From NCBI GenBank assembly GCA_965204745.1, contig OZ242010.1:1408001-1472000 (forward strand): a stretch of DNA of 64,000 nucleotides, in the 5' to 3' direction. Position 1 is the first letter of the stretch. Every line of letters starts with the position of its first letter. Below, piece by piece: positions 1-25,899 of this stretch. Made by a program: the position numbers and the translations under genes. The stretch is from Candidatus Latescibacterota bacterium (lineage in GTDB: Bacteria > Latescibacterota > UBA2968). Under the pieces are notes generated by a model. That model had not been told where the DNA came from. It saw only the letters and a list, made by a program, of their open reading frames with translations, and made no database searches.

Positions 1-917
1 CGCATCACCGCAACGATAGCCTGCAAAGGTTTCTTGCCGCGGGCGATGAGTTGGTCATAGAAGGCTTTGACATGGCCTTCGTGTCTGATGGCCACCCAGG
101 CAGGCATATAGAGGGCATGGCGGAGGTACTTATTCCCGGTTTTCGAGATGCGTCTTTGTGGATTGGCGGTTCCGGATTGTTTGGGTTTGGGATCCAGGCC
201 TGCATGTGCGACCCACTGGGGCGGTTGCATCTCCTCTGGCAAAAGGGTCAACTCGGCCAAGAGCCGCAAGGCACTCGTTTGCGCGATGCCAGGCGTCGAG
301 CAGAGGCGTTGGTAGGCACGCTTGAGGGGCTCATCGTGCAAAACGAGATCGAGGGCTTGGCTTTCCAAGTATGCAATCCGGCGTTTGAAGTGTCGAATAT
401 TCACCTGAATATCGCGTGCGATGAGACGTGTGCTGCGGATGTGGTAGCTCTGCGCGTGGTTGCGGCTCTGTTCGCGGATGATCTCCTGCTTGAGTTGGTC
501 AATGCGTCTGGTGAGGGCTTGCAGTTGAAGCCGTTGCTCGCTCGGCGCTTGCCAAGGCACAAAAGGCATGCGCTCGGCATAGTCGAGGATCAACAACGCA
601 TCCTTCGCATCCGTCTTCGCCCGTTGCATGCAGGCTTGGGCGTACTTGCTCATCGCTTTGGGATTGACGACCATGACCTTTGTGTGGCGATGCCGATGCA
701 AGGCCAAGGCCACCCCCAAACTGTAAAGCCCGGTCGCTTCGAGGCACACAGAGACCATGTGCCCGCCCTTCGTGAGCCACTTCAGCAACCGCTTATGCGC
801 TTGGGGATCATTGGCAAAGGTCGCTTGCATGACAGCTTGTCCGGGTCTGGACAGGGCAACGGACAACGTGCGGGCACTGACATCAATGCCGGCAAAAGCG
901 GGGTGAGATTTCGACAT
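1..917 (-). CDS. IS110 DEDD recombinase/transposase (3' end outside window)
   Basis: CAT at 915-917 next to an AGGAGG RBS on the minus strand; matches 17381-18388. Confidence 0.92.
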   Translation of the reverse strand, partial: MSKSHPAFAGIDVSARTLSVALSRPGQAVMQATFANDPQAHKRLLKWLTKGGHMVSVCLEATGLYSLGVALALHRHRHTKVMVVNPKAMSKYAQACMQRAKTDAKDALLILDYAERMPFVPWQAPSEQRLQLQALTRRIDQLKQEIIREQSRNHAQSYHIRSTRLIARDIQVNIRHFKRRIAYLESQALDLVLHDEPLKRAYQRLCSTPGIAQTSALRLLAELTLLPEEMQPPQWVAHAGLDPKPKQSGTANPQRRISKTGNKYLRHALYMPAWVAIRHEGHVKAFYDQLIARGKKPLQAIVAVM

Positions 918-984
918 GGGGGCCTCCTGTGATGAGGGGGTTGTAAGGGATCTGGTGCGCGCTCGGGGTCGCGTCCCGACCATT

Positions 985-1125
985 GACGCCAAGTCTACCG
1001 GTCTTGTATATGCAGCCTCAAGGGGCTTAGATACTCTTCGGCATAGACCCGGCGGTCGGGGGGCCTATCTTACCTACAAGGTCATCGCCTTCAAGAGGGG
1101 CCGGCCTTCCCCGAGCCGGGCATCA
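985..1125 (-). ncRNA. IS110 bridge RNA, copy 1 (approximate bounds)
   Basis: Same sequence as the non-coding left end of copy 2, which has target and donor guide loops. Confidence 0.75.
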
Positions 1126-1186
1126 AGATGGCTTATCTCGATACGAGGGCGCAACTCCTAATTAACCCTTACTTCCAAGATACAAG

Positions 1187-1235
1187 AGGGGAGAGGCAAG
1201 AGGCAAGAGGCAAGAGGGGAGAAGTGAGATGGGAG
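1187..1235. repeat. Purine-rich heptamer tract (AGGCAAG/GAGAGGG-like), the IS110 target family
   Basis: gagaggc-aagaggc-aagaggc-aagaggg; similar tracts at 30765-30790 and 48379-48440. Confidence 0.75.
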
Positions 1236-13674: not shown

Positions 13675-14007
13675 TGGACAGGCACAGGGGCCTGTTCCTA
13701 CGACTGATAGGGGAAACCCCTGACCCCTTGAGAAGGATAGCGCGACCACCTTCTCCCCTCTTGCCTCTCCCGTCTCCCCTCTCACCGAAGGGGGGTTGGG
13801 CGGGGCGGACTGACCACTGCCCCCTTAAGAAGGATAGCGCGGTTGCCTTCTCCTCTTGTATCTTTGGGCGAGCACAGGGGCATCGCCCCTACACATATCG
13901 CTCACCTTTGAACTGGCTGTCGCTCAGTTGTACCCCGCTCGTGCCTTTTGTGGCCTCCCCTCTTGCCTCTCCCGTCTCCCCTCTCACCAAAGGGGGGTTG
14001 GGCGGGG
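13675..14007. repeat. Composite REP/heptamer cluster
   Basis: GGGCGAGCACAGGGGCATCGCCCCTAC REP plus CCCCTCT/CCCGTCT heptamers; near-copy at 18408-18690. Confidence 0.75.
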
Positions 14008-15326: not shown

Positions 15327-17023
15327 ATGACAAAAAAACAAAAAAATCGGCGGACGAGGAACCGTCAGGGGCGTGCCAACACCGCCAAACCGCAGACCCC
15401 GGTGCAGGTAGCGGCGAGCGATCACCCTGTTAAGCGTTGGCTGAAGCGGTTGTTCCTGCCCGGGGATAATGCTGTTGAGAACGCGATCTTCCTCGCTCTG
15501 ATACTGGTCGGTGCCGCAGTTCGCCTGATTTTGCTCGGCGACATTCCCGCAGGGTTGAACCAAGACGAGGCCGCTCTGGGCTACGACGCCTGGGCCTTGT
15601 TGGAATACGGCATTGACCGGCACGGTTATCACAACCCGGTGCATTTTGTGTCTTGGGGAAGCGGGCAGAACGCCCTGTACGGCTATTTCTCGATGCCGTT
15701 CATCAAGGCGATGGGCTTGAACATCGTGTCCATCCGTCTCGCGCAGGCCCTGTTGGGCGTCGTCTCCTTGTTCGCAATGTACGCCATTGGTCGGCGTCTC
15801 GCAGATGGGCGATTCGCCCTGTTCGCCTTGTTTGTGTTGACCATCTCGCCGTGGCACGTCATGATGAGCCGATGGGGGTTGGAGTCCAACTTATTGCCGC
15901 CATTGTTGCTGTTCAGTTTCTCCTTTTTGCTTCGGGGATTGATCACCTCGCGCTACATCATCCCCGCGTTCTTCCTGCTGTCCCTTTCCCTGTACGCGTA
16001 TGGCACGGCTTACTTCTTTGTGCCGATCTTTACACTCGGGGTTCTCGTCTATGGGATGAAGCACCGCCAGATCGACGTCCGGCACTGGGGAGGCGGCTTG
16101 GTCGTGATGATCGTGACCGCGATTCCCATTGGCTTGTTCTTGGCGGTCAATTTGTTCGAATGGGAGGCCATAGAAACGCCGCTGTTCTCCATGCCGCGCT
16201 ACACTGGCGTGCCGAGGTATGCCACAACTGCCGCGTTCTTCAGTGCGGATTTTTTTTTCAAATTTGGCAGAACGGCCTGCACTTAGGGCCACTGATAGCG
16301 ACTGGACACGGCGAACCTATTTACAATGCCCTGCCCGAGTTCGGATATTTCTACCGCTGGGGCGGTTTTCTCGTCTCTGTGGTCGGCACGGGCTTTCTCG
16401 TGCGCGATGGCGTGCGGGGGCGCCGCCCCGAAAACCTGCTCGTGCTCCTGTGGCTGGTGGTCGCGCTTTTGACGTCAATAACGGTGAAGCCGAACATCAA
16501 TCGGATCAACGTCATATTCTTTCCGCTACTTCTGTGCACTGCGTACGGGCTGTACACCGCGCTTGGCGAGCAGTACAGGTCCATAGTGAAAATCGCGGGT
16601 GTCGTCGCGCTGGCGTATCTGATCTTTTCATTTGCGGCTTTCACCAAGACGTACTTCAGCGACTACCGCTGGCAACAAGTGCAATATTTCGCTCCTTCTT
16701 ATGGCGAGGCATTTGCACACATCGCACGCCATGCCAACGAGCGCGAAACCATCTATCTGACGGGCTACCAACTCCATACATTTGCGTTGTTCTACGCCCG
16801 CCCGGATCCCCGCGTGTATATGGAGACAGCGGATATTCCGAATCCAACAGCGGAATTTCAATACGTCAAATCCTTTGACCGATACGTATTCGGCATTGAC
16901 GCAGAGGCGCGGAAGAAGGGCAACGTATTCCTCATCGACAACCGGGAATTGCAATTTTTTTCCCCATCCGACTTCATCATCGTCAGGTTTCACCATTATA
17001 GCGCGGCGTACCGCCGTCGATAA
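15327..17023 (+). pseudogene. GT-C glycosyltransferase, family D copy 2, frameshifted at a T9 tract
   Basis: Homology to D1 switches frame at 16250-16258. Confidence 0.75.
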
Positions 17024-17174
17024 TACATGGACAGGCCCCTGTGCCTGTCCCTACGACTGATAGGGGAAACCACTGACCCTTGAGAAGGATAGCGCGGTTG
17101 CCTTCTCCCCTCTTGTATCTTGGAAGTAAGGGTTAATTAGGAGTTGCGCCCTCGTATCGAGATAAGCCATCTTG

Positions 17175-17312
17175 ATGCCCGGCTCGGGGAAGGCCGGCCC
17201 CTCTTGAAGGCGATGACCTTGTAGGTAAGATAGGCCCCCCGACCGCCGGGTCTATGCCGAAGAGTATCTAAGCCCCTTGAGGCTGCATATACAAGACCGG
17301 TAGACTTGGCGT
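17175..17312 (+). ncRNA. IS110 bridge RNA with target-binding and donor-binding loops (approximate bounds)
   Basis: Guides CCCCTCTT (17198) and AGGTAAG (17223) match the target; AGAGTATCT (17261) and ATACAAG (17289) match the donor junction; each pair flanks a stem. Confidence 0.8.
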
Positions 17313-17380
17313 CAATGGTCGGGACGCGACCCCGAGCGCGCACCAGATCCCTTACAACCCCCTCATCACAGGAGGCCCCC

Positions 17381-18388
17381 ATGTCGAAATCTCACCCCGC
17401 TTTTGCCGGCATTGATGTCAGTGCCCGCACGTTGTCCGTTGCCCTGTCCAGACCCGGACAAGCTGTCATGCAAGCGACCTTTGCCAATGATCCCCAAGCG
17501 CATAAGCGGTTGCTGAAGTGGCTCACGAAGGGCGGGCACATGGTCTCTGTGTGCCTCGAAGCGACCGGGCTTTACAGTTTGGGGGTGGCCTTGGCCTTGC
17601 ATCGGCATCGCCACACAAAGGTCATGGTCGTCAATCCCAAAGCGATGAGCAAGTACGCCCAAGCCTGCATGCAACGGGCGAAGACGGATGCGAAGGATGC
17701 GTTGTTGATCCTCGACTATGCCGAGCGCATGCCTTTTGTGCCTTGGCAAGCGCCGAGCGAGCAACGGCTTCAACTGCAAGCCCTCACCAGACGCATTGAC
17801 CAACTCAAGCAGGAGATCATCCGCGAACAGAGCCGCAACCACGCGCAGAGCTACCACATCCGCAGCACACGTCTCATCGCACGCGATATTCAGGTGAATA
17901 TTCGACACTTCAAACGCCGGATTGCATACTTGGAAAGCCAAGCCCTCGATCTCGTTTTGCACGATGAGCCCCTCAAGCGTGCCTACCAACGCCTCTGCTC
18001 GACGCCTGGCATCGCGCAAACGAGTGCCTTGCGGCTCTTGGCCGAGTTGACCCTTTTGCCAGAGGAGATGCAACCGCCCCAGTGGGTCGCACATGCAGGC
18101 CTGGATCCCAAACCCAAACAATCCGGAACCGCCAATCCACAAAGACGCATCTCGAAAACCGGGAATAAGTACCTCCGCCATGCCCTCTATATGCCTGCCT
18201 GGGTGGCCATCAGACACGAAGGCCATGTCAAAGCCTTCTATGACCAACTCATCGCCCGCGGCAAGAAACCTTTGCAGGCTATCGTTGCGGTGATGCGAAA
18301 GTTGCTCCATTCGATCTGGGGCATGTTGCGCCATGACCAAGATTTTGAGGGCGAAAAATTCTATCGAATCACCCCGAAAACCCCTTGA
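17381..18388 (+). CDS. IS110 DEDD recombinase/transposase
   Basis: GIDVS, CLEATG, KTDAKDA, QSG and ISKTGNKYLR motifs; AGGAGG RBS. Confidence 0.95.
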   Translation: MSKSHPAFAGIDVSARTLSVALSRPGQAVMQATFANDPQAHKRLLKWLTKGGHMVSVCLEATGLYSLGVALALHRHRHTKVMVVNPKAMSKYAQACMQRAKTDAKDALLILDYAERMPFVPWQAPSEQRLQLQALTRRIDQLKQEIIREQSRNHAQSYHIRSTRLIARDIQVNIRHFKRRIAYLESQALDLVLHDEPLKRAYQRLCSTPGIAQTSALRLLAELTLLPEEMQPPQWVAHAGLDPKPKQSGTANPQRRISKTGNKYLRHALYMPAWVAIRHEGHVKAFYDQLIARGKKPLQAIVAVMRKLLHSIWGMLRHDQDFEGEKFYRITPKTP

Positions 18389-18407
18389 CCTTTTAAGAGA
18401 GTATCTT

Positions 18408-18714
18408 GCCTCTCCCGTCTCCCCTCTCACCAAAGGGGGATTGGGCAGGGCGGACTGACCACTGACCCCTTGAGAAGGATAGCGCGGTTGCCTTCTCCTT
18501 CTTGTATCTTTGGGCGAGCACAGGGGCATCGCCCCTACACATATCGCTCACCTTTGAACTGGCTATCGCCTTTTGTGCCTTTGAACTGGCTGTCGCTCAG
18601 TTGTACCCCGCTCGTGCCTTTTGTGGCCTCCCCTCTTGCCTCTCCCGTCTCCCCTCTCACCAAAGGGGGATTGGGCGGGGCGGACTGACCACTGACCACT
18701 GACTACTGACTACT
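18408..18714. repeat. Composite REP/heptamer cluster ending in (CTGACCA/CTGACTA)n
   Basis: Near-copy of 13762-14007; heptamers at 18684-18713. Confidence 0.75.
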
Positions 18715-18717
18715 CCC

Positions 18718-21700
18718 ATGCGCTATATCCACACCATCTACATCGTCTTGATTCTCGCGACGTGCGTCTTCGCCCAAGCCTCTATCGTCACTATCGCAGG
18801 GGGTGGGTTGGAAGATGGCGACAATGTGCGGGCAACGGATGTGATGCTCAACCAGCCGCGGGGCATTGCCTTAGATGCGCGGGGCAACCTCTACATCGCG
18901 GATACGGACCACCATCGCATTCGGCGGGTCGATGCGGCGACGGGCATCATCACCACTGTCGCGGGCACGGGCGAACCCGGGTTCTCAGGCGATAGCGGGC
19001 CGGCAACACGCGCCATGCTCAACGCGCCGCAAGGCATTGCGGTTGACAGCGCGGGCAATATCTATCTCAGTAGCGGAGGCGCGAATGACGCGCAAAATCG
19101 CCGGGTTCGGCGCGTCGATCCCGCGGGCATTATCACCACTGTCGCGGGCACGGGCGAAGGGGGGTTCAACGATGGCGTGCCCGCCCTGGAAGCCACGTTC
19201 TACGACATTGTCGCGCTGGCGATGTTGGGCGACGCCGCGCTGTTGATTTCCGATGCCGGGGATCAAACCGGGCAAGGCAACAACCGAGTGCGACAACTCA
19301 ATTTGACGCGCAATACCGTCGGCACCGTGGCCGGCAATGGCAACGCCCGGGCGTCCAATATCCAAGATGGGGGGCTGGCGCACCGCGCGGGATTAACCCC
19401 TGGGCAACTCGCCATCGCGGACGATGGAGACCTGCTGATTGCAGACGTTGCCAATGGGCGCGTCCGCCGGGTCAGCCGGGCCATGCAAGACACGACCGTT
19501 GTCGTCGTCATCACCACCGTGGCCGGGCGAGAGGCGAGTCCTGAAGAAATGCTTTACAAGGGCGATGGGGGGGCCGCGACGAGTGCGTTGTTCTCCAACC
19601 CGTCGGGCGTTGCGATAGACCAGCGCGGCAATATTTATATCGCGGACACGGGCAACCACCGCATCCGCATCGTGGAAGCGGAAACCGGCGTCGTCTTGCC
19701 CCTGGCGGGCACCGGCACCGAGGGCGTGGGGGCCGAAGGCGCGTTGGGCCTGTTGTCCGATTTGCAAGGCCCCGCGCACATGATGATCGACGGCGATGGC
19801 GATCTCCTCTTTATCGACAACGACCGCATCCGAAAATTGCGCGACCCAGGGTTTCGCATGCCCCTCTTCAACGCGCCTGCCGAGGACATCGACTTTGGCA
19901 CGGTCAGCATCGGAGATCCCGCCGTGCGCGGCCTGGCCGTTGAAAACCGCGGCAACCTGCCCGTCCGCATCGACACCGTCGTTTCCGACAATGCTGGGTT
20001 CCGCATCTTATCCGCCTTGCCCTTTGATTTGGGCGTGGCGCAACTGGCAGAGATCGAACTGGCGTTTGACCCCATCCGCGAAGGGCGAGCGCAGGGGATC
20101 GTCACCCTGACCACAGACGACCCGCGCACGCCTTCTGCCACAGTCCGCGTCCAAGGCACAGCAGAATCCGCAGCTATCGGCTTGTTCCCGCCGGACGTCT
20201 TGGTTTTTGACCCCACGGCTATCGGGCAAGCGCAATCCTCGTCCGTCCGCATTTCCAACTTGGGCGCGGGCGTGCTGGTCGTTTCCCATGCCGCGACGAC
20301 CGACTCGCAATTCGTCGTGGCACAAACCGACACCTTGCGAATCGCCTCTGGGCAAAGCCAATCCCTCCGAATCGCATTTCACCCGACGGCCGAAAACGCG
20401 CAACGCGCAACGCTCACCATTTTTAGCAACGCGCCCGCAACCCCGGCGGCCACGCTCCGGTTGCAGGGCTTGGGACAACGCGCCCGGGCAGATGGATTCG
20501 TCGATGAGGCGGCCAACGCGGGCCTAGGCGACCTCGGCGCGGGATTTGGCGCGGCCTGGGCGGATTACGACCGCGACGGGGATCTCGACCTGTCCGTCGT
20601 CCGCAGCAACGAACCCAACCGCTTGTACCGCAACGATGGCGACCGGTTTACCGACGTCGCCCCAACACTGGGCATCGCCGATCCCGGCGACGGCAGCGCG
20701 GGAATCTGGGGCGATGTGGACCGCGACGGGGACTTGGATCTCTACGTCACCAATTTCGGCGAACCCAACCGCTTGTTTCGCAATGATGGCGACCGGTTTA
20801 CCGACGTCGCCCCGGCCCTGGGCATCGCCGATCCCGGCGACGGATACGGCGCGGCTTGGGCGGATTACGACCGCGACGGGGATTTGGATCTCTACGTCGC
20901 GAATTTTGGCGCGAACCGGTTTTACCAAAACGATGGCGACGGCTTTGTCGAGCGTGCCGATTCTTTGGGCCTCGCGGACGCGGAAAGCGGGATTCAGCCG
21001 GCTTGGGGCGATTTTGACAACGATGGGGATCCGGATCTCTTTTTGGCAAACAGCGGCCCCAACCGCTTGTTTCGCAATGACGGCGACCGGTTCACAGCGA
21101 TTGAAAACAGCTTCAGCCCGACCGATGCCGGGCCGAGTTTTGGCGCGGCTTGGGGCGATTTTGACAATGATGGGGATCTCGATTTGTTCATCCCCTACTT
21201 TGGCGCGCCCAACCGATTGTACGTCAATGACGGCGGCAGGTTCACGGATCGCGCGCCGGCCCTTGGCCTCGACCACGATGGGCGCGGCAGAGGCGCGGCT
21301 TGGGGCGATTTTGACAACGATGGATTTCTCGATCTCTACGTCACCAACAGGGAGCAGCCGAATTTGTATTACAAAAATCGAGATGGGCAGGAGTTCATCG
21401 AATTGGCCGATACCTTGGGCCTCGCGCTCGATGCGAACAGCAGGGGCCTCGCGCTCGCGGATTACGACTCGGATGGCAAGTTGGATCTGTACGTCGCGGT
21501 GCAAAATGGGGCCGATGCCCTGTATCGCAACCGCGAAGCCGCTGGCAACTGGCTCGGCATTCGCCTGCGCGGCACGCAAAGTAGCGCGGACGCGATAGGC
21601 ACGCGCGTTGAAATTGTCTATGGCGACGACCGCCGCGCCATCCGCGAGATTTCCGGGGGGGCGTCCTTCTTATCTCAAGACGCGCCCATCGCTCGGTTCG

Positions 21701-25015: not shown

Positions 25016-25885
25016 CTTGTATCTTGGAAGTAAGGGTTAATTAGGAGTTGCGCCCTCGTATCGAGACGAGACATCTTGATGCCCGGCTCGGGGAAGGCCG
25101 GCCCCCCTTGAAGGCGATGACCTTGTCAGGAAGAGAGGCCCCCCGACCGCCGAGTCTATGCCGAAGCGTATCTAAGTCCATTGAGGCTGCATAGACAAGA
25201 CCGGTAGACTTGGCGTGAAAAGGTCGGGACTCGAGCGCACATCAGACCCCCTTAGACCCCTCATCACAGGAGGCCCCCATGTCGAACTCTCAACCCGCTT
25301 TTGCCGGCATTGATGTCAGTGCCCGCAACTTGTCCGTTGCCCTGTCCCTGCCTGGACAAGGTGTCATGCAAACGACCTTTGACAATGATTCCCGGGCGCA
25401 CAAGCGGTTGCTGAAGTGGCTCACCAAGGGCGGGCACATGGTCTCTGTCTGCCTCGAAATGACCGGATTTTATAGCCTGGAGGTGGCCTTGGCCTTGCAT
25501 CGGCATCGCCGCACGCAGGTCATGGTCATCAATCCCAAGGCGATGAGCAAGTACGCCCAAGCGTGCATGCAAGGGACAAAGACGGATGCGAAGGATGCGT
25601 TGTTGATCCTCGATTATGCCGAGCACATGCCCTTTGTGCCTTGGCAACCGCCGAGCGAGCACCTGCTCCAACTGCAAGCCCTGACCACACGGATTAACCA
25701 ACTCAAGCAGGAGATCAGCCGCGAACAGAGCCACAGCCACGCGCAGGGCTACCACACCCGGAGCACACGTCTCATCGCACGCGATATTCAGGTGAATATT
25801 CGATACCTCAAACGCCGGATTGCATACTTGGAAGGCCAAGCCCTCGATCTCGTTTTGCAGGACGAGACCCAAAAGCGTAGCCTAC
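25016..25885 (+). mobile_element. IS110 element copy 3, diverged and 3'-truncated
   Basis: Same left end GTATCTTGGAAGTAAGGG; homology to copy 2 stops near 25885. Confidence 0.88.
25079..25216 (+). ncRNA. IS110 bridge RNA variant with altered target guides
   Basis: Guides CCCCCCTT (25102) and CAGGAAG (25127) within a conserved scaffold. Confidence 0.75.
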
Positions 25886-25899
25886 AACGAAGCGAGTAA
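25279..25899 (+). pseudogene. Truncated IS110 transposase (lacks the catalytic-Ser Tnp domain)
   Basis: DEDD domain present; ORF ends at 206 aa inside a REP sequence. Confidence 0.85.

Follow-up and report, generated by a model that had tools for sequence, protein, structure and literature searches.

A probable IS621-type bridge RNA in an IS110-group element inserted at heptamer arrays of a Latescibacterota genome

The element, its recombinase and its copies

We examined a 64,000-nucleotide (nt) stretch of DNA from Candidatus Latescibacterota bacterium (GenBank assembly GCA_965204745.1, contig OZ242010.1, forward-strand positions 1,408,001 to 1,472,000; hereafter the window), which lies within a closed 5.48-Mb genome (G000) and carries what is very probably a complete insertion sequence (IS) of the IS110 group in a sponge-associated member of the phylum. 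The element comprises a 269-nt non-coding left end (LE, 17112-17380), a recombinase gene and an 18-nt right end (RE, 18389-18406), and AAG (18395-97) and CTT (17119-21) form a 3-bp subterminal inverted repeat (STIR) around the donor AGAGTAT-CT-TGTAT. A preliminary description of this DNA had read the LE as a bridge RNA of the IS621 type programmed against a genomic heptamer repeat. Every motif named there was found in its place on direct reading of 16900-18800 (Table 1), and we have high confidence that the LE encodes such an RNA, with a predicted length of about 200 nt.

Table 1. Features of the element and related sites in the window
Feature	Position	Strand	Description and basis
IS110-family element	17112-18406	+	1295 bp with both terminal CT cores included (one of them is the target's); blastn copies
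Left target half (LT) CCCCT	17107-17111	+	Final 5 nt of a CTCCCCT heptamer unit; same in 41/45 main-guide copies
Core dinucleotide CT, left copy	17112-17113	+	Copy comparison
Left junction	17107-17111, 17112-13 and onward	+	..cccct (17107-17111), CT (17112-13), then TGTATCTT; read from sequence
Right donor half and STIR	17114-17121	+	TGTAT 17114-18, CTT 17119-21
Predicted -10 box of junction promoter	17116-21	+	TATCTT; RE-LE join of copies
Bridge RNA core (putative)	17182-17337	+	Closing stem P0, GCTCGGGG (17182-89) / CCCCGAGC (17330-37), encloses target and donor modules
Target-binding module (predicted)	17192-17236	+	Outer stem GGCC/GGCC (17192-95/17233-36); hairpin AAGG-CGATGA-CCTT 17207-20 (AAGG 17207-17210, CCTT 17217-17220)
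Left target guide (LTG) CCCCTCTT	17198-17205	+	Same sense as top strand LT + CT + T; 8 nt
Right target guide (RTG) AGGTAAG (17223-17229), then AT	17223-17231	+	Reverse complement of CT-TACCT; 7 nt
Donor-binding module (predicted)	17238-17323	+	Stems CCCGACC/GGTCGGG, GCCGGGTC/GACTTGGC and TGCCG/CGGTA; hairpin AGCC-CCTTGA-GGCT 17271-84 (AGCC 17271-17274, GGCT 17281-17284)
Donor-loop closing strands	17245-17254, 17301-17310	+	GCCGGGTCTA and TAGACTTGGC, respectively; read from sequence
Left donor guide (LDG) AGAGTATCT	17261-17269	+	Equals right-end terminus plus core; 9 nt
Right donor guide (RDG) ATACAAG (17289-17295), then AC	17289-17297	+	Reverse complement of CT-TGTAT (left-end start); 7 nt
Recombinase gene	17381-18388	+	335 aa plus stop; DEDD RuvC-like domain residues 9-154, Tnp domain 203-287
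Predicted -35 box of junction promoter	18385-18390	+	TTGACC, overlapping the stop codon; all 52 copies
Right end	18395-18406	+	STIR AAG 18395-97, left donor half AGAGTAT 18398-404, core CT 18405-06
Right target half (RT) TGCCT, wobble variant	18407-18411	+	Copy flanks
Unoccupied exact target CCCCTCTTGCCT	13755-13766, 13957-13968, 18630-18641	+	12-mer search of window
Unoccupied exact target CCCCTCTTGCCT	1208-1219	-	12-mer search of window
Second identical element copy, cut by window start	1-1186	-	Bridge RNA core 967-1116
Truncated copy, ~89% subfamily	25016-25889	+	Element positions 1-880; bridge RNA core 25086-25236

The open reading frame (ORF) follows an AGGAGG at 17370-75, six bases upstream, and its 335-aa product matches two Pfam domains, PF01548 (E 1.2e-24, 87.3 bits; cut-off 29) and PF02371 (E 4.8e-20, 72.2 bits; cut-off 21.3). 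Sequence matches to proteins of solved structure run over nearly its full length, with ISCro4 at E 7.6e-40 and IS621 at E 5.8e-36. The catalytic residues given for IS621 in PMC11208158 (D11, E60, D102, D105 and S241, with G242) align to D12, E60, D103, D106 and S248-G249, the alignment having been made to PDB 8wt6, whose chain is numbered 2 higher than that publication. The D-E-D-D and Ser-Gly residues are kept in 10/10 distinct full-length proteins of the genome, and the 57 genomic PF01548 matches all derive from this element's family. Judged from its sequence, the recombinase appears intact, in line with the preliminary description; the same description called it compact, but IS621 has 326 residues and the published family range is about 300-460 aa, so that 335 aa is nothing special.

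A blastn comparison of the element with the genome yields 77 matches, of which 52 are full length and together span 67.3 kb (1.23% of the genome). Identity among the full copies is 100% for 30, 99.1-99.9% for seven, 96.1% for eight, 95.8% and 94.8% for one each, and 88.5-89.1% for the remaining five; the 335-aa frame is intact in all but one. The existence of 30 copies identical over 1295 nt, together with the 51/52 intact ORFs, argues for recent activity.

Guides, fold and target sites of the putative bridge RNA

The 52 full copies represent 52 insertion sites, whose flanks show the target directly as ..CCCCT-CT-T[A/G]CCT in CCTCTNN heptamer arrays, that is, at the boundary of two CCTCTNN-type units (CTCCCCT / CTTACCT). 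CT stands at the start and end of every full copy, with no other target duplication. Among the 45 copies with the main guides, 20 lie at CCCCT-CT-TACCT, 17 at CCCCT-CT-TGCCT and four at TACCT-CT-TACCT; two more lie at CCCCT-CT-CCCGT, one at ..TACTT and one at ..TGCCC. Tandem Repeats Finder (TRF) reports 533 period-7 arrays in the genome (26.7 kb), roughly 208 of the CCTCTNN type and 303 of a CTGAC[CT]A type, and 29/52 copies, as well as 48/70 empty exact sites, lie in or beside an array of the former type. The copy flanks and the TRF arrays together uphold the earlier proposal that the guide target resides in a genomic heptamer repeat.

Four words in the LE read these sites and the element's own ends. 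According to Durrant et al. (PMC11208160), 8-9 nt on the 5' side of an IS621 guide loop pair with the bottom strand and 4-7 nt on the 3' side with the top strand, with the CT core in all four pairings; here, too, CT is included in all four guides. The LTG loop equals the flank at 8/9 positions in 41/45 main-guide copies (counted from the flank strings), and the LDG is identical to the RE in 76/77 copies. The stretch 17122-17380 contains each of the four words a single time, LTG first, then RTG, LDG and RDG, whereas none of 200,000 mononucleotide shuffles holds all four and 0.12% hold two or more. The preliminary description had fitted the target loop to CCCCT-CTT-GCCT with one U:G wobble; its guide words and positions stand, but the RTG is perfect for CT-TACCT, and TGCCT is the wobble variant. 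Its matching of the donor loop to the joined ends is borne out, with LDG and RDG together reading AGAGTAT-CT-TGTAT, while its CT/CTT core has to be shortened to CT, because the base after CT differs between the two junctions of the copy at G000:1297034 (CT-T on the left, CT-C on the right) and the following T is therefore no part of the core. Handshake guides, as described for IS621 in PMC11208158 (wild type A81/U82), pair with positions 6-7 of the other DNA; in our element the AT after the RTG fits the donor (..AT-CT) at 2/2 of these positions, a pairing predicted for the stage after strand exchange, and the AC after the RDG fits the target (..CT-CT) at 1/2, only the A fitting, at position 7.

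The unconstrained fold of 17112-17380 and RNAalifold with seven close relatives both pair LTG with RTG, because these share the core, and the guides were therefore held open in later folds. Under this constraint, all 11 parsed sequences (a twelfth, L043, lay outside the parse) take one architecture, consisting of a closing stem, a target module with outer stem, internal loop and hairpin, and a donor module with three stacked stems, internal loop and hairpin. A covariance model was then built from the hand-drawn structure on an alignment of 11 relatives, with the window copy left out (MAFFT misplaced its 3' closing strand). The model matches the window at 967-1116 on the minus strand, 17182-17331 and 25086-25236, and finds matches in 13/151 genomes of the phylum. 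In 19 model-aligned matches, 18 of them distinct, standard pairs fill 86.4% of cells, compared with 29.4-47.2% when partners are slid by 1-3 columns. Helices 4-6, in the donor module, are 70-100% paired, with 14/25 pairs altered on both sides. Folding and a covariance model had been proposed as a check in the preliminary description, and the outcome speaks for the RNA: beyond the fold shared by 11/11 sequences, 21/41 pairs change on both sides in a compensatory manner, and 0/500 shuffles reach the observed value on any of five measures. Compensatory changes are also plain in the raw sequences, in the closing stem, the middle donor stem and the donor hairpin, where A-U, C-G and U-G occur at one pair.

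Owing to a 6-nt insertion found only in this genome, the model match at the main locus stops at 17331 and does not extend to 17337. The insertion (17324-17329) sets the genome's copies apart from those of sister genomes and lies between the donor module and the 3' closing strand. The copy at G000:C1:5150716-5152005 carries a 5-nt deletion at the same place.

Guides and sites change together. We tabulated 77 copies from three genomes in eight guide classes, leaving the core out of the matrix scoring. In the ~89% subfamily, the LTG is CGCCTCTT or TGCCTCTT and the RTG AAGTAAG, and the flanks read tcgcct (or tcacct, ttacct)-CT-tactt in 4/5 copies; in the copy at G000:1297034, the guides TCCCTCTC and AGGTGAG fit ttccct-CT-cacct perfectly. 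Two other Latescibacterota chromosomes hold 25 relatives with the same ends and 76-84% protein identity. The guides ATCC[T/C]CCTT and AGAAAAG of one sister genome accompany flanks of the form cc[tc]cc-CT-tttct, and CTCGCCTCT and AGGGAG in the other accompany ctcgcct-CT-ccc... Scored as an 8x8 matrix of guide class against site class, the diagonal is 0.81 and the off-diagonal 0.54, with 4/20,000 permutations reaching the diagonal value; six of the eight guide classes score best on their own sites, and the remaining two on those of a sister class. At the finest scale, single guide substitutions accompany single flank substitutions between copies. The variants 17198 C>T and 17224 G>A, both in guides, are also present in other samples (metagenome contigs, four runs).

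Relatives at 52-64% identity occur in eight further genomes of the phylum (12/168 genomes have a match). These distant elements retain the scaffold, while their guides fit different, non-repetitive flanks, for instance AAATAGTCT beside aaatagt-CT (seven relatives, compared by eye), and the RTG fits at 7/7 positions in L044, L045 and L046. The LDG of L044 has changed in step with that element's RE (again by eye). The relative in genome G041 (L043, L053, L058; 54% identity) has an LTG that ends in ..GCGCAT and not ..CT; the left junction of two of the three copies reads ..gcgcAT-TGTATC, without CT, and the RTG is still perfect for CT-AACGT.

Unoccupied copies of the target allow its use to be compared between variants. 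The three empty sites on the plus strand of the window had been noted before and prove exact, and a fourth lies on the minus strand. With at most one mismatch the target 12-mer occurs nine times in the window against 0.30 expected, a count reached by 0/100 shuffles. Genome-wide, 70 unoccupied exact sites read LT-CT-RT (five CCCCTCTTACCT and 65 CCCCTCTTGCCT), with about 1.8 expected from composition. The Watson-Crick TACCT site is filled in 80% of cases (20 filled, five empty) and the wobble TGCCT site in 21% (17 filled, 65 empty), giving a Fisher odds ratio of 15 and p = 1.2e-7, a generous p-value in that copies are treated as independent events. The direction of the difference agrees with the prediction from RNA pairing, and the preferred target is ..CCCCT-CT-TACCT.

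Proposed mechanism and rival explanations

We consider it very probable that this is an intact IS110 element with a genuine IS621-type bridge RNA whose guides are aimed at the heptamer-array target. In the RNA, a closing stem would surround two stem-loops, one for target and one for donor binding, both interrupted by an internal loop, and the donor loop, through AGAGTATCT and ATACAAG, would read the element's own joined ends AGAGTAT-CT-TGTAT. Bound to this RNA, the 335-aa DEDD/Ser recombinase would recombine a circular form of the element with the junction of CTCCCCT and CTTACCT units, exchanging strands at the CT core. The long left end, the two guide loops, the core in four guides, the covariation of guides with sites, the covarying stems and the junction promoter all agree with the IS621-type layout recognised in the preliminary description. 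Expression of the RNA, its binding, a circular form and the reaction chemistry are expected by homology to IS621, and for expression, the circular form, the RNA ends and the activity the near-identity of copies enters beside homology.

Transcription of the bridge RNA would take place mainly from the circle, where the -35 box of the right end meets the -10 box of the left end. Joining RE to LE in silico predicts a sigma-70-like promoter, TTGACC, 17-19 nt and TATCTT/TATGTT, in 52/52 copies. The spacer measures 18 nt except in the 96% subfamily (17) and in one copy lengthened by an inserted base (19), and the -10 box reads TATGTT in the 89% subfamily and TATCTT otherwise. In nine relatives both boxes recur at matching positions, the spacer being 17 nt, and the -35 box is retained even where its overlap with the stop codon is gone. 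A consensus scan upstream of the bridge RNA in the integrated state gives no promoter-like site. Reading by hand, we note that in the left flanks of several copies a third upstream heptamer, CTCTTGC, creates a -35-like TTGCCT 18 nt from the element's -10 box (e.g. G000:C1:1409186, window 1187-1216), and some array contexts might in this way drive the bridge RNA in the integrated state.

The absence of such a site at the integrated copy would suit an element that is a true IS110 member with a readable bridge RNA but is now silent, its copies recording a past burst and nothing being transcribed or moving today. The weak expression of IS621 from genomic loci, as described in PMC13626964, points the same way. 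The runs that contain this sequence are sponge and marine metagenomes from eight studies, none of them recorded as RNA, and are represented by assembled contigs; the contigs of four runs gave no clean circle or empty-site joint, which is weak evidence for silence, as contigs cannot show such joints. The joints that do appear, 17063 to 18443 for example, lie inside repeats with sides of 21-38 nt and are indistinguishable from paralogous cassettes. Decay, in contrast, would have left differences among the 30 copies that are identical along their whole length and among the almost uniformly intact ORFs, and both the catalytic residues and the junction promoter are preserved in every copy. We therefore regard present-day silence as improbable.

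Less probable still, to the point of being very hard to credit, is that the guides are a passive echo of other sequence, either fragments captured from target and element ends or low-complexity C/T-rich stretches, while the protein or the DNA structure of the array picks the target. A repetitive, C/T-rich target does make short matches easier, some copies occupy sites that fit their guides poorly, and a 2026 preprint on ISPpu10 (bioRxiv 10.64898/2026.03.19.712850) describes an extra structural layer of target recognition. Echoes of this kind would nevertheless have to produce four words that occur once each, in order, within internal loops of covarying stems, and to repeat the same strand logic in eight guide classes and in seven distant relatives with unrelated, non-repetitive targets such as aaatagt-CT-cacct. 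They would also have to account for single guide substitutions that follow single flank substitutions, and for a fourfold higher occupancy of the Watson-Crick site than of the wobble site.

Several observations weigh against a functional guide RNA and temper our confidence in it. Some concern the fit of guides to sites: the copy at G000:602780, which resembles a chimera of two subfamilies, fits its own site at 6/9 (LTG) and 5/8 (RTG) positions; two copies (1928662 and 5152005) have the right flank CCCGT, to which the RTG fits at 4/8 (the core and two positions); four copies with LT TTACCT match at 6/9; the RDG has one mismatch to the left end in both sister genomes; and in one sister genome the loop is 1 nt shorter, which shifts the LTG register relative to the stem by 1 and makes the core register ambiguous. 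Donor ends are almost invariant, so the covariation of donor guides comes down to one relative (L044). The occupancy test counts copies as independent although they are not strictly so. As to the fold, the single-sequence prediction for 17112-17380 has only a modest advantage over shuffles (z = -2.26), and the shuffle control for covariation overstates its support, as the alignment was fitted to a hand-drawn structure and the sequences are related. An Rfam scan of 16500-19000 at E <= 1 found no match, so that no curated Rfam family covers the bridge RNA, a null result that belongs in this list yet in our judgement does not count against the RNA. As a separate observation, the copies at 1928662 and 5152005, in which only the left guide is matched, are similar to insertions termed 'half-match' in a 2026 preprint.

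Relation to known systems and a neighbouring hairpin repeat

The best-described comparator is IS621 of Escherichia coli, an IS110-group element with a 177-nt bridge RNA (Durrant et al. 2024, PMC11208160; Hiraizumi et al. 2024, PMC11208158). Both recombinases have the same two Pfam domains, with D-E-D-D and Ser-Gly aligned, and both RNAs lie in a long left end with modules built from a stem, a left guide, a hairpin and a right guide. As IS621 is described in these papers, the two further share the CT core in all four pairings, donor ends in ..TAT-CT, a GU linker before the 7-nt RTG and an AU after it that reads as a putative handshake pair, 3-nt inverted repeats AAG/CTT around a 14-bp donor, and a -35 box in the RE with a -10 box in the LE; each also has a high-copy genomic repeat as target. 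They differ in that protein similarity is at family level only (E 5.8e-36) and that the RNAs are not linked by Rfam or sequence searches. In our element an 8-bp closing stem encloses both modules, the target module is 45 nt (65 nt in IS621) and the donor module 86 nt (68 nt), a tandem heptamer array takes the place of a repetitive extragenic palindrome (REP) hairpin as target, and the copy number, 52 in one genome, is very high.

The best solved-structure sequence match is the ISCro4 transposase (PDB 9t56; E 7.6e-40, residues 7-326 aligned), a name taken from the depositor's label; the comparison covered the protein sequence. ISPpu9 (PMC12288879) and ISPpu10 (the preprint cited above) of Pseudomonas putida are described as likewise inserting an IS110 element into one conserved multi-copy intergenic repeat, but their target is a palindromic REP and not a tandem heptamer, and ISPpu9 has seven copies against the 52 found here. 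The IS1111 group (seekRNA-type) is described as pairing a DEDD/Ser recombinase with an RNA guide as well, with the RNA in a long right end and subterminal repeats of 7-17 bp; the IS110 group is defined in PMC11208160 by a subterminal inverted repeat of 2-3 bp flanking the donor. With its long left end (269 nt), short right end (18 nt) and 3-bp repeat, our element therefore belongs to the IS110 group and not to IS1111. On its sequence features the element falls in the IS110 group and its RNA in the IS621 type, with a partial fit at the handshake positions and for the covariation of donor guides.

Full-text searches of the literature returned no paper joining IS110 with Latescibacterota, although supplementary orthologue tables of the 2024 papers may list the element, and none joining IS110 and bridge RNA with heptamers. 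The system adds a natural bridge recombinase from an uncultured, sponge-associated phylum; it fits those described in 2024 and leaves the understanding of how they work unchanged. Its value lies in the natural specificity data set supplied by one closed genome, in which there are 52 sites, several guide variants that each occupy a heptamer variant of their own, and a clear preference for the Watson-Crick over the wobble site, all in agreement with the laboratory rules for IS621. Short, readable guides and a recombinase that appears intact also make it a reasonable candidate orthologue for bench work.

A hairpin repeat of about 40 nt, exemplified in the window at 18500-18538 to the right of the element, begins with 10 nt equal to the element's start (CT-TGTAT-CTT: core, right donor half and subterminal repeat). 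G000 holds 161 copies by BLAST and 138 by a 21-nt pattern with at most two mismatches. By the pattern count, the repeat is abundant only in the three IS-carrying genomes of the genus (138, 190 and 57 copies), with 0-3 in the other 18; as these three genomes form one branch of the rpoB tree (support 100/99), we rejected this co-occurrence as independent evidence. We also rejected the repeat as a two-ended miniature derivative of the IS, since the RE-like AGAGAGTATCT occurs only six times outside full copies and a common tail module lies within 400 nt of only 26/71 strict hairpin-repeat heads; no matching right end for the repeat was found. The tail module ends in what appears to be the opening unit of the heptamer array that follows. 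Mobilisation of the repeat as a REP by a REP-associated tyrosine transposase (RAYT) is unsupported, with no Y1 transposase (PF01797 model) in G000 or in the sister genome G082, and in G082 the left flanks of 20 repeat copies show no correspondence with the target guide of that genome. That the repeat is a half-donor site, recognised by the bridge recombinase through the donor loop alone, is a doubtful proposition that the evidence hardly supports; if it were true, the repeat would be a hitch-hiking satellite, or would provide some 140 natural 'half-match' sites that let the IS rearrange the chromosome.

Two other configurations of the element were noted in the genome. At G000:C1:1121591-1124182, two copies, of the 100% and 96% subfamilies, stand head to tail on the same strand with 5 nt (tacct) between them, so that the site of the second is made partly of the right end of the first. 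A deletion derivative at G000:C1:2972659-2972850 has its bridge-RNA region fused to the right-end terminus just past the right donor guide. The surroundings are themselves modular, in that cassettes of a module A, a period-7 array and a module B recur genome-wide (window arrays 18684-18714 and 13750-13970). The IS (17112) sits in one of two adjacent cassettes and the hairpin repeat (18500) in the other; 17073-17111 resembles 18464-18499, and 18407-18470 resembles 18636-18700.

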